Shown: piece by piece, positions 3,835 through 35,919 of the stretch
Layout: each line of letters begins with the position of its first letter
Numbering within the stretch: position 1 is the first letter of the stretch
From: Acidimicrobiia bacterium
GTDB taxonomy: Bacteria; Actinomycetota; Acidimicrobiia; Spongiisociales; ZC4RG35
Length of the DNA: 64,000 nucleotides
NCBI GenBank assembly: GCA_050741975.1
Contig: JBOGET010000120.1
Location: forward strand, 17,156-81,155
Direction: 5' to 3'
Made by a program: the position numbers and the translations under genes
Notes under the pieces: model-generated
What the model saw: only the letters and a program-made list of their open reading frames with translations
What the model was told of the DNA's origin: nothing
The model's database searches: none

Positions 3835-3835
3835 C

Positions 3836-4447
3836 TCACCCGTCCCCGGCGACGGAGGATACCCGGCTCATGAAATGAAGCTCACCACGCAGATTGTCCG
3901 CCATCTCGTCGTGGAGCTGGGCGATGAGATCCGACCGGACGAGCATGCCATGGTCCCGGGCCCGGTCGGTGGCGGCGTCGAGAGCCGCCTCGACCTCGGC
4001 CACCACACCCGAGAACAGCAGGTAGCCTTTGCCCCCGAGCCCGTCGGCGAGACGGATGGCGGCCAGGCCCACATCGGCTGCCTTGACCCCCGCATCGGCG
4101 GCGTCGATGGCGGCGGCGACAGTCGTGGTCTCCACCACTCCCAATGCCTCGTCCCCGACCGGCGCCATGGTGCTGTTCCCGGTCACCGCTTCGACCACGG
4201 ACGGATGGATGTCGGGGAGAAACACCATGTCGGCCAGGGTCTCCGACCCGACCTCGGTGCCCGCCCTGACCGCCTCCTCGACACTGGCGGTGTCCCCGCT
4301 GACGAGGACCAGGTACTTGCCCGGGTGCACCGTGCCGGCGTAGATGGCACCCAGCGGCGCCGTCTTGACCATGGCGTCACCGGCGACGATGCCGGCGCTG
4401 ATCGAGCCGAACTCGAGGAGAGCGATTGCCGGGTCGCGCTCAGACAA
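3836..4447 (-). CDS. BMC-T tandem-domain shell protein (PduT/CcmO-like)
   Basis: Two PF00936-like domains. Domain 1 is ALLEFGSISAGIVAGDAMVKTAP.... Domain 2 is ALGVVETTTVAAAIDAADAGVKAADVGL.... Confidence 0.8.
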   Translation of the reverse strand: MSERDPAIALLEFGSISAGIVAGDAMVKTAPLGAIYAGTVHPGKYLVLVSGDTASVEEAVRAGTEVGSETLADMVFLPDIHPSVVEAVTGNSTMAPVGDEALGVVETTTVAAAIDAADAGVKAADVGLAAIRLADGLGGKGYLLFSGVVAEVEAALDAATDRARDHGMLVRSDLIAQLHDEMADNLRGELHFMSRVSSVAGDG

Positions 4448-5897
4448 TGCGCAGGGCCCCGACCACGGTCACCCTCCGCACCCGGGAGAAGGTGCGGGGC
4501 CGGGTCATCCCCTCCCCGGTCGGGCTGGCGATGGAGAAAGAGGTGAACCCCTCTCCGCCCTGGCCCAGGCCGTTGAAGTTGGAGCCGTTGGCCACGAAGA
4601 TGCTGCAGTTCATGGCCCGGGCCATCCGGGTGATGGTCTCGACGTTGGTGCTGTGGATGGAGGCCGTGTGCCGGAACCCATGCTCGGAGCGCACCGCCAG
4701 ATCGATGGCATCCTCCACGTTGCCCACCCGGACCACCGGCATCACAGGCATCATCTGCTCAGTCCACACCAGGTTGTGCTCCCTGGGCACCTCGGCGACG
4801 ACGAGACGGGTGTCCTCGCCGGTGGTCACACCGATCTCGGCCAGGATCTTGGCAGCGTCCTTGCCGATCCACTCCGGGTTGATCATCCCCGGCTTCCCGG
4901 GTGGCCCCATCTCCCTGAAGATCACCCGCTCCAGACGCTTCAGCTCGTGCTCCTTGAGCCGGTAGGCCCCGGCGGAGACCATGGCTTGGACCAGACGGTC
5001 GGCCACGGTGTCGACCACGATCGTCGTCTTCTCGTCTGTGCAGATCACGTTGTTGTCGAACGACGCCCCCTTGACGATGGCCCGTCCTGCCCCCTCGACG
5101 TCGGCGGTCTGGTCGACGACGGCAGGGGGATTGCCCGGCCCGGCCGTTATCGCCTTCTTGCTGGTCTTCAGGGCCTCCTTGACCACCCCCGGGCCCCCGG
5201 TCACCAGGAGCACGCTGACCTCGGGGTGGTTCATCAGTTCCCTGGCCGACTCCAGGGTCGGCGACGGAACGGCGGTGACCAGGTCGGACGGGCCGCCGGC
5301 GCCGACGATGGCCCGATTCAAGATCTGGACGTTCTCCACCGAGACCAGCCGGGCATTGGGGTGGACGTTGAAGGTGACGGCGTTCCCGGCGGAGACGATG
5401 GCAATGGCGTTGTTGATGATGGTCGAGGTGGGGTTGGTGGTCGGGGTGATCGAACCGATCACGCCGTATGGGGCGTACTCGGTGACCATCATCCCGGCGT
5501 CGCCGGTGACCACCTGGGGCTCCAAGTCCTCGGGCCCAGGGGTGCGGGTCGTCACCAGGCGGTTCTTCATCGCCTTGTCCTCACCCCGCCCCAGACCGGT
5601 CTCCTCGGCGGCCATGTAACCGAGCCGCTCCCCCTCCCGCAACATGGCGGCCCGCATGGCGTCGACGATGCTCTTGCGGGCCTCCAGCCCCATCTCCCGG
5701 TAGCCGAGGAAGGCGGTCCGGGCCGCCGACACCGCCTGCTCGATGTCGGCATGGATCCCGTCGCCGAGTTGGACGTCGGAGACGGCGAGATCGTCTGCGG
5801 CGCGCAGGGCAGGGGCCGCCCGACCCGAGATCTCGGCGGCGGCAACCCGGCCCCTGACCCGCTCGATGATGGCCTGGATCTCTGCGTCGCTCAGCAT
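4440..5897 (-). CDS. CoA-acylating aldehyde dehydrogenase (PduP/EutE family) with N-terminal encapsulation peptide
   Basis: Aligns along its full length with PduP-type AldDH (GVIGSITPTTNPTSTIINNAIAIVSAGNAV, catalytic FDNNVICTDEK, C-terminal SPTGEGMTRPRTFSRVRRV). N-terminal LSDAEIQAIIERVRG is an amphipathic helix ahead of the catalytic core. Confidence 0.9.
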   Translation of the reverse strand: MLSDAEIQAIIERVRGRVAAAEISGRAAPALRAADDLAVSDVQLGDGIHADIEQAVSAARTAFLGYREMGLEARKSIVDAMRAAMLREGERLGYMAAEETGLGRGEDKAMKNRLVTTRTPGPEDLEPQVVTGDAGMMVTEYAPYGVIGSITPTTNPTSTIINNAIAIVSAGNAVTFNVHPNARLVSVENVQILNRAIVGAGGPSDLVTAVPSPTLESARELMNHPEVSVLLVTGGPGVVKEALKTSKKAITAGPGNPPAVVDQTADVEGAGRAIVKGASFDNNVICTDEKTTIVVDTVADRLVQAMVSAGAYRLKEHELKRLERVIFREMGPPGKPGMINPEWIGKDAAKILAEIGVTTGEDTRLVVAEVPREHNLVWTEQMMPVMPVVRVGNVEDAIDLAVRSEHGFRHTASIHSTNVETITRMARAMNCSIFVANGSNFNGLGQGGEGFTSFSIASPTGEGMTRPRTFSRVRRVTVVGALRIV

Positions 5898-5899
5898 CT

Positions 5900-6211
5900 C
5901 TACCCCGTGGGCGCCTCCTCCCGGCCCTTGTGATATCTCTCCTCGCCGCCCACGTCCCAGGAGTCGACGATCGCCATGATCACCGCATCCACGGGGCGGT
6001 CCCGGGTCAGCTCGGTCTGACGGGCAGAGCTGCCCGAGGCGTAGAGCACCACCTCATCGACCCCGGCGCCGACTGCGTCCACCGCCACCACATAGCCACC
6101 GGTGTCGGAATTGTCGGCGTCGAGCTGACGCACCACCAGGAACTTCATACCCTCCATGAGGGCCTCCTTGCGGCTGGCGACCAGTGTCCCCGCAACGCGG
6201 CCTAGATGCAC
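5900..6211 (-). CDS. BMC vertex shell protein (BMC-P), third paralog
   Basis: [31 protein letters not shown]...[27 protein letters not shown] is EutN/CcmL-like. Confidence 0.8.
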
Positions 6212-6238
6212 AGTGCCATCTCCCGCCCTCGCCGCCGG

Positions 6239-6541
<303 letters not shown>

Positions 6542-6576
6542 GAAGCTGCTCCTTTCGTTGACTTCGGTTCATCGAT

Positions 6577-7236
6577 TCAACCCGATCCTGCGTCCCGCCC
6601 GGAGAGCCCCTCGAGCGCCGCCACGGCCGCCTGCCATCCGACGTCGATGTCCCGCTCTTCGCCACCCAGGTAGACCCGGCCCATCGAGCCGAAGCTGCGC
6701 ACCTCGAGGACGTTGATCTCCGCCGCCTTCTCCGCCTCGTTGGCTGCCAGTGAGGCATAGGCGGCAGGCTCGCACTCGAGGACGTAGAGGGTTTGGCCGG
6801 GGATGATCATCTGACCGTGACGGGTCCGGTTGATGAGCTGGGCATGGTGGTCGTCCAGCCGACGAATGATCTGCGAGGATAGGATGCGGGGCTTGATGCG
6901 GTCGTCCTCGGTGCTCTCGATGCCGTCGAGGATTGCCGCCCCGGCCGCCCTGGTCTCGGCCTGGTCGGGAGAGTGCACCTCGAGGACCCCGTAATAGCGC
7001 TCGATGATCTGCAGCCCGGGTTTGACGGAAGTCGCCTTGAGGGCGACATCGGTCAGGCGGTTGATCTCGATCCCGGGGGCCACCTCGACCCAGAGGGAGG
7101 CATCGCCGGCGAGAGGGAGGAAGCCCTGGGCCACGGTCCCGAGGAAGGCGGCGTACTGGGGCTGGAGGCTGTCCAGGAACGCAAACGACCTCAGCTCAAT
7201 ACCTCTCGTCACCACTACCTCCATCCCTCTTGCCAA
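6577..7236 (-). CDS. Permuted tandem BMC-T shell protein (EutL/PduB-like)
   Basis: About 219 aa with two BMC-like domains. ...[20 protein letters not shown] resembles EutL ...PNPAEVRAGLDAMIAHIENG. The second domain [44 protein letters not shown] resembles the AADAMVKAA...GGG...VAAVKAAV core. The start is uncertain (Met at 7236 or 7224) and overlaps the DeoC 3' end by about 30-40 nt. Confidence 0.6.
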
Positions 7237-8029
7237 CGATCTCGATCCCGGCCGAAGCCCCGATTCTGGTCGCCCCTGCGGCGATCATGTCTTCCGCGTC
7301 ACCCGTGGTGCGGACCCCACCCGAGGCCTTCACCCCCATGTTCGGCCCCACCGTCTCCCTCATCAACGCCACGTCGTACACGGTTGCCCCGCCCGGGCCG
7401 AACCCTGTGGAGGTCTTGACGAAGTCGGCCTTGGCCTGTTTGGCCAGGGCCGAGGCGATGACCTTCTCCTCGTCGGTGAGCAAGGCCGTCTCCAGGATCA
7501 CCTTGCACAAGCCGCCGACCTCGTGGGCGGCGTCGACCACCTTCTCCATGTCCTTCAACACCAACTCGTGGTCGCTGGACTTGAGGGCTCCGATGTTGAG
7601 CACCATGTCGACCTCGCGCGCGCCATCCCTCAGGGCCCGGCGTGCCTCCATCGCCTTCACCTCCGGCGTGGTCGCTCCCAGCGGGAACCCGATCACGGTG
7701 CACACCGGGACCGAGGTGCCCCGGAGGTTCTCGGCCGCTCGCTTGACCCAGGTGGGGTTGATGCACACGGAGGCGAAGTGGTACTGCTCCGCCTCACGGC
7801 AGAGTTGGTCGATGTCGGCGGCGGTCGCCTCCGGTTTGAGCAGGGTGTGGTCGATGTATCGGGCCATGTCGAGGGGGACCTCCGCCGCCTCGCCGTGGAA
7901 GGCAACCCGGTCGGCTCCGTTGGCCACGACCTCGCGAACCTTCTCCCCGGTGTCGCAGACGTCGTAGCGGGCGGACAGCGCGGCCAGCACCTCCCGGGTG
8001 ACCATCTCGACGAGAGTCTCCCGGTTCAT
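7196..8029 (-). CDS. deoC: Deoxyribose-5-phosphate aldolase (class I, DeoC) with ~50-aa N-terminal encapsulation-peptide extension
   Basis: [11 protein letters not shown]...[10 protein letters not shown]...[11 protein letters not shown]...[11 protein letters not shown]...[14 protein letters not shown]...[10 protein letters not shown] aligns with B. subtilis-type DeoC. The start ATG at 8029 overlaps the rpiB stop (ATGA). The extension [23 protein letters not shown] is an amphipathic helix plus linker. Confidence 0.9.
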
Positions 8030-8649
8030 CCGGTGTCCTGTCTCATTCCGACTTTGGAGTATTGCTGCTCGATTGCGTCGATCTTGGCAACCCGGCGGGC
8101 GTGCCGGTCGCCGCCCCATTCGACCGAAAGCCACTCTTCGACGATCTGCCAGGCCAGTGCATCGCCGATCAAGCCCGCTCCCAGGGTGAGGACGTTGGCG
8201 TGGTTGTGCTCCCGGCTGTTGCGGGCGGTGGACAGGTCGTGACAGGGTGCGGCGCGGACACCGGGGACCTTGTTGGCCACCATCGCCGAGCCGATGCCGG
8301 CCCCATCGACGATGACTCCGTAGCGGCAGGCGCCCGATGCCACCTCACTGGCGACCGCATGGGCGAAGTCGGGGTAGTCGACCGAGTCGTGCGAATCCGT
8401 GCCACAGTCGAGTACCTCGTAGCCCGCCTCCTTCAGGCGGAAGCCGATCTTCTCCTTGAGCGGGTACCCGCCGTGGTCGGACCCGATGGCGATCCTCGTC
8501 TTCGTGTCGCCGGGCACCGTCGTCTGCGGGGGCGAGCCGGCCTCCGCGCGCGGAGGCTGATCGGATCCGATGACGCCGTCGATGACACGCTCGACGAGCG
8601 AGCGGACTTCCTGCTCTGTGGGTGAGCTCGGGCCGGCGGGAGATGTCAT
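8026..8649 (-). CDS. rpiB: Ribose-5-phosphate isomerase B (RpiB/LacAB family) with ~55-aa N-terminal extension
   Basis: [18 protein letters not shown]...[17 protein letters not shown]...[24 protein letters not shown]...NHANVLTLG is the RpiB fold. N-terminal [17 protein letters not shown] helix followed by a Pro/Thr linker. It is the first gene of the operon. Confidence 0.85.
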
Positions 8650-8671
8650 CGGGCTGGGTGCGGCCTCACCT

Positions 8672-8694
8672 GGCCCATCCTAGGAAGATGGGCC
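8672..8694. promoter_or_regulatory. Inverted repeat GGCCCATC-N7-GATGGGCC in divergent promoter region of BMC operon
   Basis: An 8-7-8 perfect inverted repeat about 25 bp upstream of the rpiB start, between the BMC operon and the divergent HTH gene. Confidence 0.25.
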
Positions 8695-8726
8695 GGCGCC
8701 ACGGTCTTGCCCGGCCTCATGTTCTT

Positions 8727-9398
8727 ATGATGCCTCGCATGGCCGATCGGGACCCTGCCTTTCTCTGGGAGACCGAGGCGCTTCGCACCTCGGCGACGTC
8801 TCCGGGCGGCCCGCCACCCATCGCGCGATCGGCGCCGGCCGACTGGCTGACCTTGCGCCAGGCGAGCGCCGCCACCGGGATCCCGGTGTCGACCCTCCGC
8901 AACTGGGCCCGGAAGGGCAAAGTCGCCAGCTCGCTCGAGGAGACCCCCGCCGGGGCCCGTCGAATGGTCTCGCTGAAGGGGGTTGAGGACCGGGCCCGTC
9001 AGTTGGGACAGAATGTCGACGCGGTGGTCGAGACGATGGGTACGGAAATCCCCCCGACCTCGGTCCGGCAGGATCAGGTCTCACAACCCCCGGGGACGGT
9101 GCTGGTCCCCATCGATGCCTGGGACAAGATGCTGCTCCAACTGGGAAACCTGCACCAGGCCGGTCAACAATTGGCCGAGGCCAGGGAACGGGCTGCCCGG
9201 GCAGAGACCGAGGCCGACTTCCTCCGGGAGCGGTTGGCCGAGCTGAGATCCTCCAAACCCGGCTCCGACCCGGTCCACCCGACGGTGGAGGCGCCGCCTC
9301 CTATCGAGGAGGAGCCCGAGCCGGCCAAACCAACGAGGATGCCCAGCTTCACCGCCTATTTGTGGCGTCTTGCCGTGTCGGACAGGCGCCGGAAGTAG
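8727..9398 (+). CDS. Excisionase/MerR-superfamily helix-turn-helix DNA-binding protein with coiled-coil C-terminus
   Basis: WLTLRQASAATGIPVSTLRNWARKGKV is an excisionase-family HTH. C-terminal AEARERAARAETEADFLRERLAELR is helical. The track ORF starts at 8622; Met at 8727-8739 is more likely because it clears the rpiB start. Confidence 0.5.
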   Translation: MMPRMADRDPAFLWETEALRTSATSPGGPPPIARSAPADWLTLRQASAATGIPVSTLRNWARKGKVASSLEETPAGARRMVSLKGVEDRARQLGQNVDAVVETMGTEIPPTSVRQDQVSQPPGTVLVPIDAWDKMLLQLGNLHQAGQQLAEARERAARAETEADFLRERLAELRSSKPGSDPVHPTVEAPPPIEEEPEPAKPTRMPSFTAYLWRLAVSDRRRK

Positions 9399-9416
9399 AG
9401 GGAGCGAGCGTTTACA

Positions 9417-10106
9417 TCAAGGTCGCGCGGGAGATTCCTCGAAGATCCGCCCGTCGTTGAGGTGGAGCACGCGGTGGGCGTGGTCGGCCAGACCTGGGTC
9501 GTGCGTCGCCACCAGGGCGGCGAGACCGAGGCGGTCGACGAGCTCGCGGATCATCCTCATCAACTTCAGCCCGGTCTCCGAGTCGAGCTGGCCTGTCGGC
9601 TCGTCGGCAAGGAGGATCGACGGCTCGGTGACCAGTGCCCGCGCCAGCGCCACACGCTGCTGTTCTCCGCCCGAGAGCTCCTCCGGCCGATGGTCGGCCC
9701 GGGCGGTCAACCCGACCCGGCTCAGGACCTCGTCCACCAGCCTCGCCCTCTCCACGGGGTCGACCCTGCTCACCCGGAGCGGGAGCTCGACGTTCTCGGC
9801 GGCGGTGAGGATCGGGATCAATCCGCCCGACTGCACCACCAGCGAGACCTTGCTCCTTCGCAGCTCGGAGAGCTCACGCTCGCCGGCGGTGGAGAGATCG
9901 AGCCCATTCAGGCTGATCGAGCCCTCGTCGGGGCGGTCGATCCCGGCCAGCATCGACAAGAGGGTGGTCTTTCCCGCTCCCGACCGGCCCAGCAGGAGAA
10001 CCAGTTCGCCGGGGCGTAGGGCGAGATCGACCCCGTCGATGGCCCTGATCTCAGCGTCTCCCACCTGGAATCGGCGGTGCAGGTCGGTGGCCAGCAATAC
10101 CGTCAC
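9417..10106 (-). CDS. ABC transporter ATP-binding protein (MacB/FtsE-like)
   Basis: Walker A LLGRSGAGKTT, signature LSGGEQQRVALARAL, Walker B LLADEPTGQLD. The likely GTG start overlaps the upstream gene's stop (GTGA). Confidence 0.85.
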   Translation of the reverse strand: MTVLLATDLHRRFQVGDAEIRAIDGVDLALRPGELVLLLGRSGAGKTTLLSMLAGIDRPDEGSISLNGLDLSTAGERELSELRRSKVSLVVQSGGLIPILTAAENVELPLRVSRVDPVERARLVDEVLSRVGLTARADHRPEELSGGEQQRVALARALVTEPSILLADEPTGQLDSETGLKLMRMIRELVDRLGLAALVATHDPGLADHAHRVLHLNDGRIFEESPARP

Positions 10107-11023
10107 GAACCGATGCCTTTGAAGTCCGAAGGCCATACCCGCACGTGGTCCTCCTCCAACGTCAGCTTCACCCGTTTCGCCATCCCCAGCCGCTCCACAT
10201 ACTCGGCGGGCAGCTGGAGCCTCCCGGCGCGATCGAGAACAGCGAACTCCGAGGAGGGAACCCGGCCTTCCTCGTCACGGTGAATGATCTCGGTGGCAGT
10301 CCTCCCGTCGCGAATGGCAACGGTCCGGTCGACGTGCTCGGCTATGAGGGGGTCATGGCTGACCACGACCGCCGACATCCCTAGCTCCTCGTTGAGAGTC
10401 CGGAGCGTGCTGAGGACCTCGTGGCTGGTGGCGCTGTCGAGGTCACCGGTCGGCTCGTCGGCGAGGAGCACCTCGGGATCGTTGGCCAGCGCAACCGCCA
10501 GAGCCACCCGCTGCTGCTCTCCGGGGGAGAGCCGCCCCGGCCGGTGGTCGAGCCGGTGGGACATCCCCACCATCGCGAGCAGCTGGCGGCCTCTGCTCAT
10601 CCTGGCCCACTTGGGGAGACCGGCCAGCGCCGAAGGGAGGTCGACGTTCTCCAGCGCCGTCAGATAAGGAAGGAGATTGCGGGCGCTCTGCTGCCAGACG
10701 AACCCGACCGCTCGCCTCCGGTATTGGACCCGGCGTCGGCGCGACATGCGGAGCAGCTCGAAATCACCTACCCGGACCTTCCCCGCCGTCGGGGTGTCGA
10801 TGGCGCCCAGGATGTTGAGCAAAGTCGACTTCCCGCTTCCCGACGCGCCCACTACCGCCACCATCTCGCCGCGGTCCACCACCAGGTCGAGACCCTGGAG
10901 GGCGACCACCTCGAGCTTCGATGACGAGTAGATCTTGACGAGGTTGTCGCAGACGATGTGGGCGCCCTCGCCAAACCCGGGCGCATGTTGATGGTCGGGG
11001 ATCATCACTGGCTCGATCATCAT
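10103..11023 (-). CDS. ABC transporter ATP-binding protein with ~70-aa C-terminal extension
   Basis: VVGASGSGKSTLL, LSPGEQQRVALAVAL, LLADEPTGDLD. Extra C-terminal domain (...EFAVLDRAGRLQLPAEYVERLGMAKRVKLTLEEDHVRVWP). Confidence 0.85.
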   Translation of the reverse strand: MMIEPVMIPDHQHAPGFGEGAHIVCDNLVKIYSSSKLEVVALQGLDLVVDRGEMVAVVGASGSGKSTLLNILGAIDTPTAGKVRVGDFELLRMSRRRRVQYRRRAVGFVWQQSARNLLPYLTALENVDLPSALAGLPKWARMSRGRQLLAMVGMSHRLDHRPGRLSPGEQQRVALAVALANDPEVLLADEPTGDLDSATSHEVLSTLRTLNEELGMSAVVVSHDPLIAEHVDRTVAIRDGRTATEIIHRDEEGRVPSSEFAVLDRAGRLQLPAEYVERLGMAKRVKLTLEEDHVRVWPSDFKGIGS

Positions 11024-13680
11024 CGCACCTCGCTCCGAAGAGCCTCAACCGCATCGGCCGCGCCCAACCTCCTGCCGGCGACGACGGCGACGACCACTGC
11101 CACGATGACGAGGACCGCCGGCGCCACCAGGAGCCCAAGCGGGTCGACGGTCGGGCCCACCCTCCCCGGGGCCCCGGTGAGCCGGGCGAGGGCGGACGCC
11201 TCCACCCCGAGCCTCACCGCTACGATGCCGGCCAGGACTCCGGCGAGGGTGGCGGGAACCACCGGGACCACGAGCTCCAGCGTCACCAGCGCCGACATCG
11301 ACGGCCGCGGCACCCCGATGAGGTCGAGATGGGCCGCCTCGTTGGCCCGGCGCGACCCAGTGAGCAAGGCAACCAACAAGATGGTGGCGACACCAAAGAT
11401 GAGCGACACCACCGACACCGTCCGGAATCCTCCCGGGACCGCGGCCGAGAAGGGGGAGGCGCTCAGATCGGCGACGACGCCGCGCCGCACCGTCACCGAC
11501 GCCGTGGACTCGACGCCTTCTACCAACTCGGCGATCGCCACGTCCCCGTCGACCGGCGCATCGGGTGTGAGGTCGAGATAGAGGCGGTCGAGGCGCTGCT
11601 CGATCAGCGGCGCGGCTCTGATCGCCTCATCGAGGAAGGTGACGACAAACGGCGCCTGGACCGACGGGAACTCGTCTACTACCCCCTCCACCTCGACCAT
11701 GACCCTTTGGCCGCCAAGGATGAGGGCAATGACGTCGCCCGGCTCACCCACCCCCGGAGAGACCAGGGCGGACAGCCGGGCCCCACGTGAAGGCAACGGA
11801 ACCGGGATCGGCGAACCAGAGCCGATCCTCGACAGGGCGTCGAGGTCGGCGGCGAGAAACCCGACATCTCGGGCCTGTCCCAGGACCTTGACGTTCTCCG
11901 CGTAGGCGAGGGTGGTCTCGCCGACCTCAGCCATCGACTCGAGACCCGCCTCCTCCACGATGGTGGCCACCGCGTCCGACTCGATCATCAGGTCGGCGCC
12001 CACGGTGCGCCACCCCGTGCGCTCTTGCTCGGTGCGAAGTGTGGTCTCGAACACGAAGGCGTAGGTGGCGGTGGTGACGACCAGGACCACGACCACCGGC
12101 AGCGCCAGACCCTGCCGGTCCCGGCTGAACCGCCGGAGCACCAACGCCGCCACCAGCCCACGTCCACGACGGGCGGCGGCGGCCAGGGAAGGGGCCACGA
12201 GCGAGTAGAGCCGTACCAGCACCAAGGCCGCGGCCAGTGCGAGAAGCGGCGGGGCGAGGGCGAGCAAGAGGTCGAACCGCCCGAGCGGCTCCGCCCGTCG
12301 CCGAGCGAGGAGGATGGCGACCACCACGGCGAGGGCCACCACACCCACCTCGACGGCCGCCCTACCCACCCTCTCCAAACGTCCCGTCGCCCGGGGAGCG
12401 TCCCACCACACTGTCACAATCGCCACGATGAGCGTCACGAGGAAGGCGATTGCCCCTGCCTGCCACGCCGACAACCCGTCGAGAGCAGTCAGACGGTCTG
12501 CCACGATGGCGGCCAGCGTCCCTGCCAGGGCCGAGAGTGCCAAGGTCGCCGCGGTCGACGTCGTGATCTGGAGCCCGTTCGCTCCCCGGTCCCGCGCCAG
12601 TTCGGTGGTGTGCCGCCTTCTCTCGGCCAGGAACCGTGCAAGCACGAGGATGGCGGCGAGTGCTGCCAGAGCCGCCGAGATGCCGGCCACCAAGAGGAAG
12701 CTCCGAGTCGCCTCGAGGTCCGCCTCCGCCCGTGTGAAGATGTTGGGGAGCCCGCTCTGGATGAGAAGGCCGTCCCCGGCGGGATGGCTCAGCTCGGAGA
12801 GCCTGGCGAAGCCGAGCGAGAGGGCGTCCCGCCCGGCGGGGTCGTAACGCCCCGGATCGACCAGGAACCGCCAGGTGACCCTGGGTTCGATGACGCCCAA
12901 CCCGACCGCTTCGACGGCAGCCAGCGAACCGTCGTCCACGAGTGCGGTGACGTCGACCAACTTGTTGAGGTTCGCATCGAACGACACCGCCGGGTCGAGA
13001 AGAGCGATATCCCCGCCCCAGAACCTCTCGTCGCGGTCGACGCCCTCGAACAGGCCGGTCACCACGACCTCGAAGGGCATCGCCCGTCGACCAGCGAGGA
13101 ACAGCCTGCGACCATCGCCGGTCAGCCTCACCTCGACCACATCGCCGACGCCAACCTCCGTCGCCGAGGCGGAGGCCGAGCTCAGCGCCACCTCCAAGGG
13201 CTCGGTGCCGACCTTGGGCCTCGGCCAGGAGCCCTCGACGAGGGCGAGGTGGTCCCGTGCGGTTGGCTGAACACGGAAGTTGAAGGTCCGCAGGAGCTCC
13301 CCGGTGGGGGTGGTCGGGCTCGTCATTCCCACTTGCGGAGCCTCCATTTCCACCCGTCGATCGGCGACGAGGGCGGCGACCTGGGGATGGAGCTCCTCAT
13401 CGAGGATCCGCCCGCCCTCGCCGGTGAGGGCACTCAACGACGCCACCGAGGTGAACTGCGTGGCGGTGATGTGACGCGTCAGCGGCGAGGACTGCGACAC
13501 CAGGTAGGGGAACTGGGCCGCCTCGACCGATTGGTAATCGGCACTGAGTGCCGCGGCGGCGTGGGTGAGGGACCCCACCAACACCATGACGGCGAGGCTC
13601 ACCGGGCCGTCCCACCGGGCAAGCAGGGTCACGGGGCGAAGCAGCGACCAGCCCCCCCGACCGACCGGCTCGCTCACCAT
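11020..13680 (-). CDS. ABC transporter permease, double FtsX-domain type (TM-ECD-3TM-TM-ECD-3TM)
   Basis: Two large extracytoplasmic domains, each followed by an FtsX-like TM cluster. The track ORF is extended to 14229; Met at about 13680 abuts the upstream gene's stop. Confidence 0.75.
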   Translation of the reverse strand: MVSEPVGRGGWSLLRPVTLLARWDGPVSLAVMVLVGSLTHAAAALSADYQSVEAAQFPYLVSQSSPLTRHITATQFTSVASLSALTGEGGRILDEELHPQVAALVADRRVEMEAPQVGMTSPTTPTGELLRTFNFRVQPTARDHLALVEGSWPRPKVGTEPLEVALSSASASATEVGVGDVVEVRLTGDGRRLFLAGRRAMPFEVVVTGLFEGVDRDERFWGGDIALLDPAVSFDANLNKLVDVTALVDDGSLAAVEAVGLGVIEPRVTWRFLVDPGRYDPAGRDALSLGFARLSELSHPAGDGLLIQSGLPNIFTRAEADLEATRSFLLVAGISAALAALAAILVLARFLAERRRHTTELARDRGANGLQITTSTAATLALSALAGTLAAIVADRLTALDGLSAWQAGAIAFLVTLIVAIVTVWWDAPRATGRLERVGRAAVEVGVVALAVVVAILLARRRAEPLGRFDLLLALAPPLLALAAALVLVRLYSLVAPSLAAAARRGRGLVAALVLRRFSRDRQGLALPVVVVLVVTTATYAFVFETTLRTEQERTGWRTVGADLMIESDAVATIVEEAGLESMAEVGETTLAYAENVKVLGQARDVGFLAADLDALSRIGSGSPIPVPLPSRGARLSALVSPGVGEPGDVIALILGGQRVMVEVEGVVDEFPSVQAPFVVTFLDEAIRAAPLIEQRLDRLYLDLTPDAPVDGDVAIAELVEGVESTASVTVRRGVVADLSASPFSAAVPGGFRTVSVVSLIFGVATILLVALLTGSRRANEAAHLDLIGVPRPSMSALVTLELVVPVVPATLAGVLAGIVAVRLGVEASALARLTGAPGRVGPTVDPLGLLVAPAVLVIVAVVVAVVAGRRLGAADAVEALRSEVR

Positions 13681-16600
13681 TGCTCCACTCCACGTCGGGC
13701 CGGCGCCGCCCTCATCGTGCGGGCCCGTCCTACCACCGCCAGGAGCATGACCACCAGCACCAGCCCGATCCCGGCAACCACGAGGAGCGCCCGAATCGCC
13801 GGAAGCTCCACGGTGGCGGCAGGCACCGGTTGGCGCCCATCGGACCCGAGCGTCACCGATCCGAGCAGGAGGTAGGAGAGGAGGACCCCCAGCCCCCCAC
13901 CGGCGAGCCCTGAAAAGAGGAGCAAGGCGCCATGCTCGACCGCCAGAGCGGTCGACAGTTGGCGCGAGCTCATCCCGGCCATGATCATGACGATCATCTC
14001 GGAGCGCCGCTCCTCGAGGGCGGAGGCCAGCGCCGTCGCCATGATCACCGCAGCCAGCAAGGCAGCCAGGGCTGCACCGAGATACGACGCCGCCAGAAGG
14101 CCCAGCGGCAGCGGGTCGCCCAAGAGCTCGGCGAGCCGCCCGGCGCGGGTGGTCACCTCGGCGGCGCCGGCCGCCAGCAGCGCCGACCGAGCCGCCGCAG
14201 GGTCGCCTCGATCCAAAGAAGCCCACCACTCGTCAGGGCCGCCCACTCTTCCCGACGCGGCGAACTCCAGCGTCGCAAGAGCAGCGCGGTCCATGACGAT
14301 GATCCCGTCGTCGGGGTCGCCCGTGGGAAAGAGCTCGACCACGCCCACTACCTCGAACTCACGGCGCAGGCCGGCGAAGACGAGCTGGAAATGATCCCCG
14401 TCGCCGACGACCGACGCCGAGGCAAAGGTCTCGTTGACGATCACCGCGATTGGCGCGTCGACCGGAGGGGTGGACGCCAGGTACCTGGTCACGGTGTTGA
14501 CACCGTCCGATTCTCCCGGCAGCGCAACCCAATCGAGGGTCAAGGAGACGGTTCCGGAGTCCGACTCGACGATCACCGCTTCCGGACGCGCATCGGGCGC
14601 ATCCACCACCACCCCGATCACCGTCAGCGGCGTCGAGGCCTCATCGAGGGCTCCTGCGCCCTCCAACCATTCTCTCGGGGCCAGGGCGGGACCTGCCGCG
14701 CCGGAAAGCACATGGAGCACGCCTTGGAAGTCGCGGACCACGAGCTCGACCCGGGCCGGTCGGTCGGTGACGACGGCGACTCGTCGGGGAGCTCCCAGCT
14801 CCACTCCGAGACCGGCCCAGGCCCCTCCCAACTCGTCGGCGCGCAGAATGCCACCAAGGGGACGTCCTCGTACCAGGCCGATGTCCGCCACCCCGGGCCC
14901 CACACCGAGCACGACGCCACCGTCGGTGGCCGAGGCCAGCGACAGGGCCCTCCGGGTGACTGGGACGACCGAACTCACACCTGGCGCCGCTGCGAAGCCG
15001 GTGCCTTCGCCGAAGGGCGCCGGGTCGGTCTCCAGAGCCCTCTCCGGGATGATCAAGGCGTCGGACCCGACCTGGTGCGAGGCGCGATCGGCCTGCGAGT
15101 TGGTCCAGGTGGCGTCAAATGCAAGGGCGAAGACCAGCATCGCCACCGCCAGCACGGTGAGGATCGATGAGTGGGTATGACGCCCAGCACGCGAGCCGAA
15201 GTTCCTCATCCCCAACCACAGCGGGACGGCCTCGGTACCTGAGGTCAGCCTGGCTGTTCCGGCGCTGGCCGCCGGAACGAGACGGGCCGCGACCGAAGGG
15301 GCCAGGAGCAACGCCACCGCCGGAACCGCGAGGAGGGCGGGATCGCCGCCGCTCGCCAGCCGGGGCGGGTTGAAGAGCAGGACCGCCATCGCCACCACAG
15401 CGATCCCAGCCAGAACCAAGTCGATCCGGGTGCGGCGGAGGAGGTCGGGGGCGGGTGACCCGATGCGTGAGGCCATGAGAGCCACCAGCGCCACGGCCAC
15501 GGCGATGGCGCCACCGGCGAAGACGTAGGCGGTGGCGTCGAGTCCCGCTTCGAGGATCAGTCCGGCCTCCACGAAGGTGGGCAGCCTTCCCAGGGCGTCG
15601 ACTGCCCAGGATGCCAACCACGGTCCGGCGACCACTGCCGGGATCCCGAGGAGAGTCGCCTGCAAGGCTCCCGCGATCATCATCTGCCGGCGTGTGCCGC
15701 CCCGCAGCTCGATCGTTTGGTAGTGGCGGCGCAGCGACGCCATCAACGACGCGGCTGCCGACCACATGGCAAAGCCGGCCATCAACGAAAGCTGCACGGA
15801 GGTGGCGTTGATCCCGGCGGAGGAGACCTCCACCTTCCTCCGCAGGTCTGCTTCGAGAGTCGGGAAGTCGGATTCGACGCCGACCTCGAGCGCCGCCAGA
15901 CGCTCGTCGACAGACCGCATGCCGTCGGAGACCCGCCCCAGGTCATCCGAGGTGATCGATCCGAAATCGGGAAAGACCCGCCATTCCTGACGGGCCCCAT
16001 AGCCCTCCACCACGTCGTCGAAGCTCCGGCCTGAGACGACCAGAGGCCCGGTGACGACGAACTCCGCCGTGACCCGGCGCCCGGCCGTCTCCAGGAGCTC
16101 GCCCCACCAGAACGGGTCCTGGGCGTCGACAACCCGGAAGATCCCCGCCACCGACACGGTCAGTCGGTCATGGGAGCCACCGGAGACCTCGATTCCGACA
16201 CTGTCTCCCACAACAAGACCGAGGGCGGCGGCGGCCTGCTCGGAGAGCGCAACCGGAAGCGTTTCTCCCGGTCCGACGTCTCCCGGCCAGGTCCCTTCCA
16301 CCAGCTCGGCGTGCCCCTCGATTCCCTCATGGGCGACGATGACGGTGGTGTCATAGGGCGTGGGATCGTCTTGCCAGGTGAAGGGCGCAGACTGCCGGAT
16401 CTCCGACACGGTCGCACCGGGGAGCCCATCGGAGACGACCCCGGTCACCGCGGCCGACAACTCATCCATGGAGGCAGCCCGGACCGGCGCCGAGCCCCGC
16501 AGGCCGACCGCCTCCACCGGCGCCGCCGCCAGCGCGGCGCGGAGCCCGGCGTCGCCAACAGCAGAGGAGAGGATCGGGCCTACCGACACCGAGACCGCAG

Positions 16601-16691
16601 CGACGAGGAGGATGAGGGCGGCAGAAGCCGACGCCACCGGGCGGGCGCCGATCGCCCTCAGGCTTCGCCCCAGGCTCCCAGAGCCGCTCAC
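13674..16691 (-). CDS. ABC transporter permease, double FtsX-domain type (paralog)
   Basis: 1005 aa with the same architecture as its neighbour: N-terminal TM, large ECD, FtsX TM clusters. Confidence 0.75.
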   Translation of the reverse strand: MSGSGSLGRSLRAIGARPVASASAALILLVAAVSVSVGPILSSAVGDAGLRAALAAAPVEAVGLRGSAPVRAASMDELSAAVTGVVSDGLPGATVSEIRQSAPFTWQDDPTPYDTTVIVAHEGIEGHAELVEGTWPGDVGPGETLPVALSEQAAAALGLVVGDSVGIEVSGGSHDRLTVSVAGIFRVVDAQDPFWWGELLETAGRRVTAEFVVTGPLVVSGRSFDDVVEGYGARQEWRVFPDFGSITSDDLGRVSDGMRSVDERLAALEVGVESDFPTLEADLRRKVEVSSAGINATSVQLSLMAGFAMWSAAASLMASLRRHYQTIELRGGTRRQMMIAGALQATLLGIPAVVAGPWLASWAVDALGRLPTFVEAGLILEAGLDATAYVFAGGAIAVAVALVALMASRIGSPAPDLLRRTRIDLVLAGIAVVAMAVLLFNPPRLASGGDPALLAVPAVALLLAPSVAARLVPAASAGTARLTSGTEAVPLWLGMRNFGSRAGRHTHSSILTVLAVAMLVFALAFDATWTNSQADRASHQVGSDALIIPERALETDPAPFGEGTGFAAAPGVSSVVPVTRRALSLASATDGGVVLGVGPGVADIGLVRGRPLGGILRADELGGAWAGLGVELGAPRRVAVVTDRPARVELVVRDFQGVLHVLSGAAGPALAPREWLEGAGALDEASTPLTVIGVVVDAPDARPEAVIVESDSGTVSLTLDWVALPGESDGVNTVTRYLASTPPVDAPIAVIVNETFASASVVGDGDHFQLVFAGLRREFEVVGVVELFPTGDPDDGIIVMDRAALATLEFAASGRVGGPDEWWASLDRGDPAAARSALLAAGAAEVTTRAGRLAELLGDPLPLGLLAASYLGAALAALLAAVIMATALASALEERRSEMIVMIMAGMSSRQLSTALAVEHGALLLFSGLAGGGLGVLLSYLLLGSVTLGSDGRQPVPAATVELPAIRALLVVAGIGLVLVVMLLAVVGRARTMRAAPARRGVEQW

Positions 16692-16792
16692 CTTGCCGGA
16701 ACGGGGGGGAGCCGCAGCATCACGGCATGATATGAGCGGATCAACGTCTGGAAATCAGGCCGAGCGAGCCTGGTCGCCGGCCGGCTCCGGGT

Positions 16793-17878
16793 TCAGGCGG
16801 TTGGCCCGGAGATGAGCCTGTAGCTGATGTCCTGGTCGAGGTTCATGTCCATCACGAAGCCGACCATCTCACCGGTCTGCTCGTCGGGGATGCTCATGTC
16901 CATCGAGATGTTGGCGCCCGAGGTGGTCTCCGACTGCCGAGCGACCCCGGCCTCGGCGTCGAACCAGGTTCTGCTGTCGGCGGTGGTGCCGTCGACGCTG
17001 ATCAGGAAATGGAGCTGGTCCAGTATCGCCTCGAGCTCGGCCGTCTCCTCCGGCGTGGCCTCCTCGGTGGCGAAACCCTCGAACATCCCGGCGAAGAACT
17101 CGGCCAGGTCGACCTCGATGAGTGAGGTGCTCGAGTTGCTCTCGATGACGAGGACTTCGGTCCCGTCCAGCTCTTCGACACCGGTGACCGTGGTGGTGAT
17201 GCTGGTCACGATGGGCTCCCCGCCGAAACCGGGGGTCTCCACCTCATCGCTCCAGGCGTCGCCCACGGTGACCTCTTGGTCGGAGAAGGGAGGGCCGATG
17301 AACTTGCCGGGGTCGAGGCCGGGAGCGGAGCTGTCGCCCCCGAGTGCGCCCAAGTCTCCGAACATGCCCGCCAGCGGGTCCTCGGCGCCCGTCGCCCCAT
17401 CCTGGATGAGATTTCCCTGCTCGTCCACGACGACCGTGACATCGATCGGATCGAGAGTCGCGAAATCGGGTGCCACATCGGAGTCGACGGGTTGGCCGTC
17501 GATGGTCCCCGTCACGCTGACATCTGTGAACTCCCCGGTGATGTGGACCTCATAGGTGTCGGGCTGGGGACCATCGGAGACGACGTGGGTGAATGTGGCC
17601 GTCCCTGCCAGGTCCAACGCTGCCTCACCGGGCACTTCTTCGCCGCCCATGAGCGAGGGGTCGCCGGAGGCGGTCATCTCGATGTGCTGGTCGAGACCCA
17701 CTTCGTACTCGAACTCATCCCCGGCGGCGAGGGAGTAGCTGAGCAACACGGCCTCCACGGCCGGCGCCGTTGTCGTGGACTCGGGCTCGGGGGCTGTGGT
17801 GGTCGAGTTCCCGGAGGCCCCGCCACAGGCGGCAACCCCGAGAGCCAGCGCTGCGATGAGGATGAGACGACGCTTCAT
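16793..17878 (-). CDS. Acidic lipoprotein, first gene of the FtsX-ABC cluster
   Basis: MKRRLILIAALALGVAACGG is a lipoprotein signal with lipobox, followed by a Thr-rich linker and a highly acidic mature domain. Confidence 0.55.
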   Translation of the reverse strand: MKRRLILIAALALGVAACGGASGNSTTTAPEPESTTTAPAVEAVLLSYSLAAGDEFEYEVGLDQHIEMTASGDPSLMGGEEVPGEAALDLAGTATFTHVVSDGPQPDTYEVHITGEFTDVSVTGTIDGQPVDSDVAPDFATLDPIDVTVVVDEQGNLIQDGATGAEDPLAGMFGDLGALGGDSSAPGLDPGKFIGPPFSDQEVTVGDAWSDEVETPGFGGEPIVTSITTTVTGVEELDGTEVLVIESNSSTSLIEVDLAEFFAGMFEGFATEEATPEETAELEAILDQLHFLISVDGTTADSRTWFDAEAGVARQSETTSGANISMDMSIPDEQTGEMVGFVMDMNLDQDISYRLISGPTA

Positions 17879-17940
17879 ATCGACAGGTTATCGGTATCGG
17901 GGGCCTTTCCTTTGAGCCCATCCTTGCCCTGCGACGACGA

Positions 17941-18066
17941 ACCTCAGCTTGCACGGCCCGGATATGGCACAAACTCTCTCAGGTTCAGAAGGAGGCGGCA
18001 CCCCTCACGAACTCGAGACGGTTTGTGCCACATATGAAACGCAGAAGCTCAGCTTCGACGTCGCGT
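17941..18066. repeat. MITE/REP-like inverted-repeat element, copy A
   Basis: GAACCTCAGCTTGCACGGCCCGGATATGG...CAGGTTCAG ... GAGACGGTTTGTGCCACATATG...AAGCTCAGCTTCG. About 75-80% identical to the element at 51601..51720. Intergenic between the divergent lipoprotein and metG genes. Confidence 0.4.
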
Positions 18067-18082
18067 TTACCCTCCGGAGCCT

Positions 18083-19723
18083 ATGAGCCGACGGATACTC
18101 GTTGCCGTGGCCTGGCCGTATGCGTCGGGGTCGCTTCATCTGGGCCACCTCGGCGGTGCCTATCTCCCATCGGACATCTTCGCCCGCTACCACCGAATCG
18201 TCGGGAACGAGGTGCTCATGGTCTCCGGCTCCGACGCCCACGGCACCCCGATCACGGTCAAGGCCGACGAGGAAGGCATAAGCCCCTCACAAGTCGTCGA
18301 GAGATATCACCCCGAGATCGTGGGCTACTGGGAGTCGCTCGGGATCTCCTTCGACCTGTTCACCACCACCATGACCGAGAACCACGCCACGGTCACCCAA
18401 GACGTCTTCCTCCGGCTGCTGGAGAAGGGATATCTGGTCAAGGGGACCTCGACCCAGTATTACGACCCGGAGGCGGAGCGGTTCCTCCCCGACCGTTACG
18501 TCGAGGGGACCTGCCCGCATTGTGGCTATCCCCAGGCCAGGGGGGACCAATGTGAGAACTGCGGCCGGACCCTGGACGCCACCGACCTGCTCCAACCACG
18601 CTCCCGTCTCACCGGGGCCACGCCGGTGCTCAGGGAGACGGAGCACTACTTCTTCCGGCTCCCCGAGTTCGCCCAGCCGCTCCGGGAGTGGCTGGAGTCG
18701 AAGACCACCTGGCGCCGTCACGTGAAGAACTGGGCACTGGGAATGATCGAGGAGGGGATGCCGGAGCGGGCCATCACCCGGGACATCGAGTGGGGTGTCG
18801 AGGTCCCCGTCGACGACCTGGGCCCGGGGAAGCGGATCTACGTGTGGTTCGACGCCGTGATCGGCTATCTGAGCGCGGCCAAGGAGTGGGCGGCCTCGAC
18901 CGACGACCCCGATGCCTGGAAACGGTGGTGGGAGGACCCCCAAGCCGAGTCGTACTACTTCGTGGGCAAGGACAACATCCCGTTCCACACCGTGATCTGG
19001 CCCGCGATGCTGATGGGCTATGGAGGGCTCAACCTGCCCACCGACGTCCCGGCCAACCAGTACATCACGTTCAAAGGCCAGAAGGCGTCCAAGTCCCAGG
19101 GGGTGGGCAAGTCGATCGGATGGTACGCCGGGCGACTCGAGCCCGACGCGATCCGCTACGCCATCGCCTCGGTGCTCCCCGAGCAGAACGACACCGACCT
19201 CAGCGACGACGAGATCATCCGCAGGGTCAACGAGGAGCTGGTCGCCACCTGGGGCAACCTGGTCAACCGCGTCCTCTCGTTGAGCGAGCGGAACTTCGAC
19301 GGAGGTGTCCCCTCACCGGGCCCGCTGACGGCCACCGACGAGGCTCTCGTGGCCACGGTGGACAAGAGCCTCGAGGCCACGGCCGGCCACATCGAAGCCG
19401 TCGAGCTCCGGGCCGGGCTCCGGGCGGCCGTGGATGCCGCCTCCGAGGTCAACGCCTATCTGAACTCCGAGGAGCCGTGGCATGTCCTCAAGGAGGATAC
19501 CGAGCGTGCGGGGACCATCCTCTGGACCGCCATCCAGGCAATATCCGGGATCAGGGTCGCCCTCGCCCCGTATCTGCCCTGGACCACGGTTCGATTGGGC
19601 GAGATGCTCGGGATCGAGGGCGAGATCGACGGGTGGGAGCGACCCCTGGTCGAGGGTGGGACCAGGCTGGGGCCGGTGACACCCCTGTTCACCAAGCTCG
19701 AGCCGGACGTGCTCGACGACTGA
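18083..19723 (+). CDS. metG: Methionyl-tRNA synthetase
   Basis: HIGH motif (ASGSLHLGHL), Zn knuckle CPHCGY...CENCG, KMSKS-like KASKSQG. Class I aaRS architecture. Confidence 0.9.
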   Translation: MSRRILVAVAWPYASGSLHLGHLGGAYLPSDIFARYHRIVGNEVLMVSGSDAHGTPITVKADEEGISPSQVVERYHPEIVGYWESLGISFDLFTTTMTENHATVTQDVFLRLLEKGYLVKGTSTQYYDPEAERFLPDRYVEGTCPHCGYPQARGDQCENCGRTLDATDLLQPRSRLTGATPVLRETEHYFFRLPEFAQPLREWLESKTTWRRHVKNWALGMIEEGMPERAITRDIEWGVEVPVDDLGPGKRIYVWFDAVIGYLSAAKEWAASTDDPDAWKRWWEDPQAESYYFVGKDNIPFHTVIWPAMLMGYGGLNLPTDVPANQYITFKGQKASKSQGVGKSIGWYAGRLEPDAIRYAIASVLPEQNDTDLSDDEIIRRVNEELVATWGNLVNRVLSLSERNFDGGVPSPGPLTATDEALVATVDKSLEATAGHIEAVELRAGLRAAVDAASEVNAYLNSEEPWHVLKEDTERAGTILWTAIQAISGIRVALAPYLPWTTVRLGEMLGIEGEIDGWERPLVEGGTRLGPVTPLFTKLEPDVLDD

Positions 19724-31528: not shown

Positions 31529-31761
31529 CGATAGGGTTTCGTTTCCGATCTCGCCGCGTGGTCACGAACACCAACCGCCAGGACCCAAGGACTAGTCAAG
31601 AATGGTGAATCGGGAACGGGCCTGGAGCCGGGGCCGCCACCGGGGAAGATTTCCACGGCGCCGGGAGAGGGCGCCATTTGGGGATTGTCTTGGGGGCTTC
31701 ACCCCTTCGGCATCTTGGCTTGCAGATCGAATGTTGCCCGCAGCGATCCCTGAAATCACCC

Positions 31762-31797: not shown

Positions 31798-31841
31798 ACC
31801 GTTTTCGACCGAGATCGGCTTTCAGGGTCCCAGGTGACCGC

Positions 31842-35890: not shown

Positions 35891-35919
35891 ACCCGGACAG
35901 CGAGCAAGGATGAGAGAGC

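Follow-up and report, generated by a model that had tools for sequence, protein, structure and literature searches.

The 64-kb window examined here, meaning the whole stretch from position 17,156 to 81,155 of contig JBOGET010000120.1 (assembly GCA_050741975.1, an Acidimicrobiia bacterium), carries two intergenic elements, copies A and B, each built from a pair of inverted 48-nt arms that flank a 22-nt spacer. At the least, these elements are a new family of repeats resembling repetitive extragenic palindromic (REP) sequences. Related genomes and metagenomes contain the same arm, singly and as inverted doublets, and arms also stand on both sides of a gene encoding an AbiEi_4 winged-helix domain and a DUF559 nuclease domain. 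The repeat family and its association with this gene are very probably real. The interpretation that is modestly favored is that the elements are similar to REPINs (REP doublets forming hairpins) and that their cognate protein is the AbiEi_4-DUF559 nuclease, not a REP-associated tyrosine transposase (RAYT) or the transposase of an insertion sequence (IS).

Inverted doublets of a 48-nt arm

Copy A is found at 17939–18056 and copy B at 51601–51718, so that both are 118 bp long. A first-pass annotation of the window had placed them at 17941–18066 and 51601–51720; its ends needed correction, while its claim that two related copies exist holds, as a profile of the arm, an inverted-repeat search and the count of a 21-mer all agree. 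The arm profile matches exactly four arms in the window and nothing else, with E-values of about 1e-10 to 1e-14 (in copy A, 17939–17987 on the plus strand at E = 1e-13 and 18056–18008 on the minus strand at E = 7e-10). The three longest inverted repeats of the window are A against B (53 nt, 81%), A internally (56 nt, 71%) and B internally (48 nt, 81%). The 21-mer GAACCTCAGCTTCCACGGCCC from the start of the arm, with up to three mismatches, occurs three times, against 0.01 expected from shuffled sequence.

The better preserved of the two elements is copy B, in which both inner hairpins are intact. Its left arm (51601–51648, plus strand) has its outer 13-mer at 51601–51613 and a 7-bp inner hairpin, CGGCCCA-AATA-TGGGCCG, at 51616–51633; its right arm (51671–51718, minus strand) has its outer 13-mer at 51706–51718 and an inner hairpin at 51686–51703 that includes two G–T pairs. 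The arms are 81% complementary over 48 nt and end in terminal inverted repeats of the type seen in miniature inverted-repeat transposable elements (MITEs), perfect over 14 bp, so that the 12 bp originally reported was right but conservative. The spacer (51649–51670) is 22 nt long, not the roughly 30 bp first proposed. In copy A, both inner hairpins have degraded. The left arm (17939–17986, plus strand) begins with the outer 13-mer GAACCTCAGCTTG at 17939–17951, followed by the degraded hairpin region at 17954–17971, and is separated by a 22-nt spacer of unconserved sequence (17987–18008) from the right arm (18009–18056, minus strand), which is the most diverged of the arms and has the outer 13-mer GAAGCTGAGCTTC when read on the minus strand. 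The derived sequence GGCACAAAC is common to both arms of copy A, and the 3' terminus has decayed to GAAGCTCAGCTTC, in agreement with the degraded terminal repeat described at first. Without gaps, the two copies are identical at 82 of 118 positions (69%), and single arms match each other at 32–40 of 48.

Both copies have a lower G+C content (56–57%) than the window as a whole (66.4%). Copy A is situated between divergent genes, a lipoprotein-like open reading frame (ORF) at 16793–17878 (minus strand) and metG at 18083–19723 (plus strand), and copy B between convergent ones, a family-2 glycosyltransferase gene at 50175–51584 (plus strand) and a gene with a PCRF/RF-1 domain whose stop codon is at 51781 (minus strand), which bears out the intergenic setting that had been noted for each. 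Directly next to the right end of copy B is an 11-nt tandem repeat, TCAGGTACCGG × 3.2 (51717–51751, plus strand), which is rich in ACCGGT palindromes, is absent from the orthologous locus L011 and makes up most of the extra 44 nt between copy B and the RF-1 stop compared with that locus. Possibly it is a slipped duplication of the terminus of copy B; its link to the element is uncertain.

The structure of the arm is best seen in an alignment (A6) of 28 arms, which is free of gaps over the 48 nt. Positions 1–13 make up an outer palindrome, (G/A)AACCT-N-AGGTT(C), of the GAACCTNAGGTTC type; GAACCTCAGCTTC, the outer sequence of most dispersed copies including those of the window, is one step from a perfect palindrome. 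Positions 16–33 form an inner hairpin with a 7-bp stem and a 4-nt loop, typically CGGCCCG-GATA-CGGGCCG. At the inner end, positions 40–48 carry the CTCAGGTTC motif, CTC(A/G)(G/A)GTTC, in which the half-palindrome appears a third time. The unit is thus short, imperfectly palindromic and capable of forming a hairpin, as a REP is, by virtue of a 7-bp covarying stem and a 13-bp outer palindrome. REPINs, as defined in PMC3337134 and PMC5581495 and in RAREFAN, are inverted pairs of such units with a short spacer, and this is the build of copies A and B and of the doublets at loci L011, L012 and L013 (118–119 bp; 48 + 22–23 + 48).

Compensatory changes are found in both modules. Both partners have changed in six of the seven inner pairs, GGCCCG/CGGGCC being replaced by GTCCCA/TGGGAC, CGTAACG/CGTTACG or GGGCCA/TGGCCC, and base pairing at the five core positions is kept in 23–28 of the 28 arms. 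In the outer palindrome, CCTSAGG varies to CCTAAGG and CCCGGGG, and the lineage of locus L019 has the compensated change from T6-A8 to C6-G8. The covariation score of the combined structure, inner helix plus outer palindrome, was reached by none of 500 shuffles, and pairing halves if the partner is moved by one column. A long helix within the arm, joining positions 1–9 to 40–48, was tried and rejected: it is paired in 74% of cases, shows one double change and is uncompensated in L019. Given this poor pairing, positions 40–48 are interpreted as a sequence motif instead of one strand of a helix.

Folding of the two copies, a check that the first-pass annotation had suggested, gives strong hairpins of −58 to −80 kcal/mol, far better than shuffled sequence (z of −5 to −10). 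Such stability could point to a function in RNA, as a bidirectional terminator, an mRNA-stabilizing 3' hairpin or a small RNA. REPs in E. coli, including those in bacterial interspersed mosaic elements (BIMEs), stabilize upstream mRNA, and copy B and several of its relatives lie directly past stop codons. Nevertheless, an RNA function is improbable as the main explanation. There is no T-tract and no terminator-like site in 17700–18300 or 51400–52000, and Rfam gives no credible match for either copy or for L008 and L011–L013 even at E-values up to 10; at the gathering threshold its sole match in the window is a tRNA at 57030–57101. The stabler strand differs between copy B and its orthologue and among doublets, leaving no strand bias; solo and gene-flanking arms keep their primary-sequence motifs; and copy A is upstream of both its neighbors. 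Local effects are possible as a secondary matter: copy B would put a long hairpin at the 3' end of each of two convergent transcripts, and copy A would put one in the promoter region that metG shares with the lipoprotein gene.

Outside the window, an exact-pattern scan of genome contigs with GAACCTCAGCTTNCNCGGCCC gave six matches, of which one is true: a single arm 5 nt past a stop codon in an Acidimicrobiia metagenome-assembled genome (MAG; L006). The other five are chance matches in unrelated phyla, with no similarity outside the pattern. An exact-pattern scan of metagenomes yielded seven true loci, with solo arms in L007, L008, L010 and L014 and full doublets in L011 (118 bp), L012 (119 bp) and L013 (118 bp). 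These loci partly share samples (Ga0214469, Ga0190265 and Ga0299907, twice each). All copies are intergenic, and several fill the interval from a stop codon to the gene that follows. The plasmid collection contained no match to the element. In L010, an actinobacterial SOS-box-like palindrome, CGAACACATGTTCG (L010:3500–3553, minus strand), is present about 35 nt inside the inner end of the solo arm and overlaps the ATG of the next gene.

Comparison of orthologous sites shows both retention and change. The L011 contig is collinear with window positions 43211–55640 at 78.7% nucleotide identity and has a doublet (L011:8452–8569) exactly at the position of copy B. The arms of the two orthologues are identical at 76 of 96 positions (79%), while the spacer has kept its length and only 6 of its 22 positions (27%); the two flanking genes have 61–62% identity at their third codon positions. 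Since the arms are more conserved than third codon positions and the spacer length is kept, the sequence comparison indicates that arm sequence and arm spacing have been constrained or homogenized since the split of the two lineages and that the spacer has drifted freely.

Copy A, on the other hand, is absent near metG in five relatives (L025–L033) that are as diverged as L011, with 77–80% nucleotide identity to the window, whose closest MetG homologue on record (89% identical) comes from MAGs labeled “Acidimicrobiia bacterium”. In its place, between the lipoprotein gene and metG, L027–L033 have an EamA transporter gene and L025 and L026 a 41-codon remnant called as a gene (window 17879–18082 against L025:8458–8632 and L027:9378–9971). 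Homology with the window restarts at 18060 or 18064, a few bases past copy A. An apparent extension of the copy A palindrome (GCGACGAC / GACGTCGC) was discarded, as it includes native sequence that is conserved in these element-free relatives. The reverse case is L007, collinear with window 31693–37212, where a 288-nt spacer holds an arm and a degenerate second arm; its counterpart in the window (34631–34703) has 72 nt and no arm. Between the intact and the degenerate arm of L007 is a further strong hairpin, GATCGGGGCGAC-ACTGT-GGTCGCCCCGATG (L007:3816–3860). Taken together, the orthology of copy B, the absence of copy A and the arms of L007 show a family with long persistence and turnover.

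A nuclease gene between inverted arms

In L008, two arms stand 1.1 kb apart in inverted orientation (unit 8216–9313) and enclose one ORF of 302 amino acids, with an AbiEi_4 winged-helix domain (E = 1e-12) and a nuclease domain of the Vsr type (DUF559/MTES_1575). Further loci were fetched through homologues of this protein at 53–98% identity, without regard to arms: L015, L016, L018, L019, L024, L034 and L040, by way of P0007 (78% identical), P0021 (66%), P0037 (64%), P0056 (53%), P0067 (53%), P0003 (97%) and the paralogue P0070 (54%). None of these loci had contributed to the arm model by which the first of them was detected. In every non-redundant locus examined, there is an arm on each side of the gene, within about 110 nt of its ends and with the outer palindromes facing outward, and the flanks of about 20 kb around the homologue-fetched loci contain only one other arm. 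The upstream arm ends 45–55 nt before the start codon, beside a conserved TCTAGAA box. L016 differs downstream of the gene, where it has two tandem arms in the same orientation, 73 nt from start to start (L016:4389–4510), in place of the one found at other loci.

The neighborhood of the gene is conserved as Bmp-Vut_1-[gene]-VanY-ClpC across 53–100% protein identity. Identical proteins, on up to eight contigs, always have the same neighbors, with one genomic context per look-up. The gene therefore behaves as a single-copy, vertically inherited resident, as the cognate gene of a REP or REPIN population does, and the multi-copy behavior of an IS is ruled out by the constant neighborhood. The paralogue, at a different site beside Rex and cytochrome genes, has its own arm variant, GAACCCGGGGTTG...GGGCCA-AATG-TGGCCC. 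More generally, arm variants track protein lineages in both the inner stem and the outer palindrome, and the one dispersed solo arm seen close to a variant gene, at L024:7787–7831, carries the variant that flanks L024's own gene. The arms of the window are closest to the L008/L040 type (38 of 48). The L040 protein is 97% identical to that of L008; the metagenome it comes from also yielded L010 and L011, the latter being the window's closest relative.

Both ends of contigs L017 (1070 bp) and L042 (1142 bp) fall inside arms, which is expected if assembly breaks at repeats. Many homologues of the nuclease gene are likewise on contigs of 1.0–1.3 kb, barely the size of the gene. This suggests that the arms systematically break short-read assemblies.

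The sequence and the predicted structure agree that the protein is an AbiEi-like winged-helix DNA-binding module fused to a Vsr/DUF559 nuclease of the PD-(D/E)XK type. Profile searches against PDB sequences match residues 6–100 to AbiEi (6y8q) and AbiGI (9hlo) and residues 232–301 to the DUF559 structure 3hrl. In the AlphaFold model (pLDDT 84), about 200 residues match AbiEi (Foldseek E = 1e-9) and also Rv2827c, and the C-terminal domain matches Vsr (1cw0), the catalytic domain of I-Bth0305I (3r3p; template modeling (TM) score 0.75, normalized to the target) and 3hrl (TM 0.77). Among 30 homologues with 48–100% identity, residues D236, E247, D249, R251, W253, H254, D263, R264, R266, D267, G274 and W275 are invariant, spelling out the DUF559/Vsr-type motif D...ExD.R.WH...DR.RD...GW. 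Fold and motif are thus those of the Vsr type, with no methyltransferase gene adjacent. Nor is a gene for the AbiEii nucleotidyltransferase toxin found next to it, the neighbors being Vut_1 and VanY or, for the paralogue, Rex and cytochrome genes. No relatives of the protein were found in viral contigs, and the plasmid collection had only a Tsukamurella record related to it. The sequence CCTNAGG, whose avoidance would hint at a restriction or Vsr link, is not significantly avoided in the window (13 occurrences against 19.7 ± 4.3 expected).

AbiEi binds inverted repeats in its own promoter. The main rival explanation builds on this: the protein would be an autoregulating DNA-binding regulator, and the elements of the window would be immobile cis-regulatory sites, selected by the host as part of an operator-site regulon. 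The N-terminal 200 amino acids match AbiEi in sequence and in fold, the upstream arm has a suitable position close to the start codon and beside the TCTAGAA box, and copy A lies within the promoter region shared by metG and the lipoprotein gene. Constrained arms at a fixed distance around a free spacer, as in copy B, would fit a binding site, and covariation of a palindrome is also expected where a dimeric protein binds. However, copy B and several others (L006, L012, L013) are located after stop codons or between convergent genes and not in promoters, and copy A is missing beside the same genes in five relatives. The second arm, always present downstream of the nuclease gene, is superfluous for autoregulation, and the invariance of the nuclease residues and the breaking of short contigs at arms also speak against this rival. 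This rival is therefore considered unlikely, though it deserves to be taken seriously.

A different rival is that the elements are classical MITEs, derived by internal deletion from an IS of the DDE type that resides elsewhere in the genome and would have GAACCTCAG... termini. They are small, intergenic and bounded by terminal inverted repeats, and their presence varies between relatives. A larger unit with the same termini does exist, the 1.1-kb unit of L008 (8216–9313) and its equivalents; its protein is not a known transposase, and it is found at one syntenic site. The first-pass annotation had called for a search for target-site duplications and for a cognate IS with matching termini. Neither turned up: ten inspected copies lack target-site duplications, and matching arms were found to enclose no coding sequence other than the AbiEi_4-DUF559 gene, for which each look-up gave a single conserved context. 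Its statement that the window has no transposase stands, as a Pfam scan of the 40 larger ORFs (smaller ones were not scanned) returned no transposase domain. Conservation extends over all 48 nt of the arm, whose internal structure and covariation reach beyond the termini; doublet length is fixed at 118–119 bp; copy B is an old copy that appears to be under purifying selection; and no match was found for the element in the plasmid collection or for the protein in the viral one. A MITE origin is thus improbable. Of the two readings that the annotation had offered, the classical MITE is not supported, with no target-site duplication, a partner gene that is not an IS transposase and a copy B that is old and selectively retained, while that of a REP-type, non-autonomous element broadly holds, given the multi-copy intergenic family in relatives, its singlets and inverted doublets, its presence/absence variation and the arm-bracketed gene.

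The geometry of the bracketed gene raises one more possibility, that the doublets are empty or vacated targets of a homing-type nuclease whose gene homes into the spacer or was deleted from it. The gene takes the place of the 22-nt spacer with the arms in the same orientation, and its C-terminal domain resembles the catalytic domain of I-Bth0305I (at the target-normalized TM of 0.75 given above). Against this, each look-up found the gene in a single conserved context, with synteny that spans deep divergence, a uniform spacer of 22–23 nt is not expected from independent deletions, and homing needs allelic homology, so that spread to new loci would be left unexplained. A homing origin is accordingly very unlikely.

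The sequences indicate that an AbiEi/DUF559 gene between inverted structured palindromes recurs outside the Acidimicrobiia, with solo units in Tsukamurella. The gene of Tsukamurella tyrosinosolvens NCTC13231 encodes a protein 30% identical to the Acidimicrobiia one and is bracketed by 42-nt inverted units (L043:2913–2954 and 3907–3948) that are 93% complementary and unrelated in sequence to the arms described above. Solo copies are present in two other intergenic regions, one convergent and one divergent (L044:2501–2542 and L045:2501–2542). Each repeat is itself a hairpin in which an internal loop separates an outer 10-bp stem from an inner one of 4–7 bp. The Tsukamurella “plasmid” records are suspected to be chromosome fragments filed as plasmids, judging from housekeeping genes such as nrdF and pntB. 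In a Gordonia MAG, a DUF559 gene is bracketed by inverted repeats, again unrelated in sequence, at L046:9900–9967 and 10864–10931. Each contains a near-perfect palindrome of about 41 nt (GTTGATTTCGTGTCCGC...), and the downstream one overlaps the 3' end of the gene. No further copy was found within 20 kb in L046.

These observations also bear on whether the elements are true REPs and REPINs moved by a RAYT (a Y1 HUH transposase) encoded outside the window, with the DUF559 association due to a coincidental insertion preference. The rest of the window's genome is unseen, and the doublet and singlet architecture and the intergenic placement are those described for REPINs in PMC3337134 and PMC5581495. 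However, arms flank all non-redundant AbiEi_4-DUF559 loci in a fixed orientation and at a fixed distance, their variants follow the protein over 53–100% identity and at two chromosomal sites, and the same arrangement is present in two distant genera. No RAYT-like gene was recognized from Pfam labels in about 470 kb of fetched sequence, and no Y1 transposase occurs among the scanned ORFs of the window or in the fetched loci, so that the cognate gene of a REPIN-RAYT system is missing from them. It would be surprising if a RAYT were responsible.

A proposed mechanism and the wider window

MITEs, RAYT-driven REPINs, RNA elements and homing targets are thus all judged less likely than a system centered on the nuclease gene. 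The current thinking is that the 48-nt unit would be the specific recognition site of the nuclease protein, whose winged-helix module would read the palindromes while the nuclease acts nearby. Dispersed singlets and doublets, including those of the window, would then be non-autonomous copies that the protein produces and/or maintains in trans, and the genome from which the window comes would presumably carry an AbiEi_4-DUF559 gene. The steps differ in strength. That the protein recognizes the arms is likely. That it disperses or maintains them is a fair suspicion at best, falling somewhat short of a conclusion. The most general form of the proposal is put forward only tentatively: it holds that the Actinomycetota may have a second, independently evolved REPIN-like class, in which a domesticated winged-helix protein with a Vsr-like PD-(D/E)XK nuclease, in place of an HUH tyrosine transposase, recognizes the structured unit that brackets its own gene and disperses or maintains copies of it over the chromosome, and that the elements of the window may be copies of that unit.

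Several points weigh against this. We infer the binding of arms, cleavage there and the copying or moving of elements, and the last is the weakest step, as to our knowledge a PD-(D/E)XK nuclease alone has no means of copying DNA to new sites. Copies are few: the 64 kb of the window contain two doublets, and the metG region of relatives, about 100 kb of non-redundant sequence, has none. A tblastn search of the window found no AbiEi_4-DUF559 gene. Target-site duplications are lacking in the ten copies inspected, the two flanks share no direct repeat at A, B, L011, L012, L013 or the L008 unit, and neither the region upstream of metG nor the L007 site (window 34631–34703) provides a clean empty-site junction, their flanks being rearranged or unalignable. 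The conservation of old arms would fit a binding site with a host function equally well. The two arms of a single gene cannot be counted as independent in the covariation analysis, and the generalization beyond the Acidimicrobiia consists of two loci.

Other features of the window were observed in passing. Positions 3200–9400 are a bacterial-microcompartment locus by synteny with L025 and L027 and are conserved across the clade; the window encodes aldehyde dehydrogenase, DeoC aldolase and RpiB, and the relatives have BMC/EutN shell genes. The adjoining segment at 9367–16793, which contains two ORFs of about 1000 amino acids, at least one of them with an FtsX-type permease domain, as well as a gene for an ABC ATPase, is an insertion compared with L025 and L027, where rpiB/MerR-like genes directly adjoin the lipoprotein gene. 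The longest ORF of a threonine-synthase-like gene (55765–57312, minus strand) overlaps the tRNA at 57030–57101 (plus strand), and the real start of the gene must therefore be further downstream. Genes for Ku and an ATP-dependent DNA ligase, which belong to non-homologous end joining, are found at 57285–59023.

Relation to known systems

In a literature collection that was itself incomplete, no paper was found that mentions both DUF559 and AbiEi, connects DUF559 or AbiEi_4 proteins with flanking or dispersed repeats, describes REPIN/RAYT-type systems in Actinobacteria or reports palindromic intergenic repeats in Acidimicrobiia. The large AbiEi_4-DUF559 family is now annotated as “antitoxin domain-containing”, “DUF559 domain-containing” or “very-short-patch-repair endonuclease”. 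If the proposed partnership is correct, it would be the first functional lead for this family, and the 13-bp palindrome and the covarying hairpin provide defined DNA sites for testing it. In practice, the arms interrupt the assembly of metagenomes and create spurious small gene calls.

The two halves of the protein each have well-known counterparts. AbiEi, from the type IV toxin-antitoxin system AbiE (6y8q), matches the N-terminal winged helix and the domain that follows it (sequence E = 8e-7, Foldseek E = 1e-9). Unlike in AbiE, there is no adjacent AbiEii gene, a nuclease is present at the C-terminus, and the repeats occur on both sides of the gene as well as elsewhere. The C-terminal 100 or so amino acids share the restriction-endonuclease-like fold of Vsr (1cw0) and I-Bth0305I (3r3p), with the D...ExD...H motif, but without the adjacent cytosine methyltransferase of the one or the intron or intein context of the other.

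As for the repeats, MITEs are similar in being small and non-coding, with terminal inverted repeats and a larger gene-bearing element that has the same termini. They differ in the points that argue against a MITE origin here: no target-site duplications, a partner that is not a known transposase and a gene that is not multi-copy, full 48-nt arms conserved with internal covariation, and old copies that are seemingly under selection. The REPs and BIMEs of E. coli are also intergenic imperfect palindromes, often past stop codons, that occur singly or as inverted pairs with defined spacers. There is no sequence relationship to them, however, and BIMEs bind integration host factor (IHF), gyrase and DNA polymerase I (Pol I); the gene linked to them is the RAYT gene yafM, whereas the one in question here encodes a DUF559 nuclease.

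The closest parallel is the REPIN-RAYT system. As described by Bertels & Rainey 2011 (PMC3116915) and Bertels et al. 2017 (PMC5581495), it shares with the family the short palindromic unit, the singlets and inverted doublets and the hairpin of about 110–120 nt. The likeness extends to strictly extragenic copies, an apparently single-copy and vertically inherited gene bracketed by the unit, unit variants that co-vary with the lineage of the gene, and copies that persist for a long time. The differences are that the bracketed gene encodes an AbiEi-type winged helix with a Vsr/DUF559 nuclease instead of a Y1 HUH transposase; that the unit is longer (48 nt) and a composite of two palindromic modules; that it has no conserved 5' tetranucleotide of the GTAG type; and that the hosts are Actinomycetota, with a copy density that appears lower. 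REPs and REPINs with their RAYTs, known essentially from Proteobacteria, are the textbook example of a long-lasting, vertically inherited population of repeats with a domesticated transposase as its partner. If the reading offered here is right, a repeat-plus-gene partnership would exist on a different enzyme fold, and this lifestyle would have evolved more than once.

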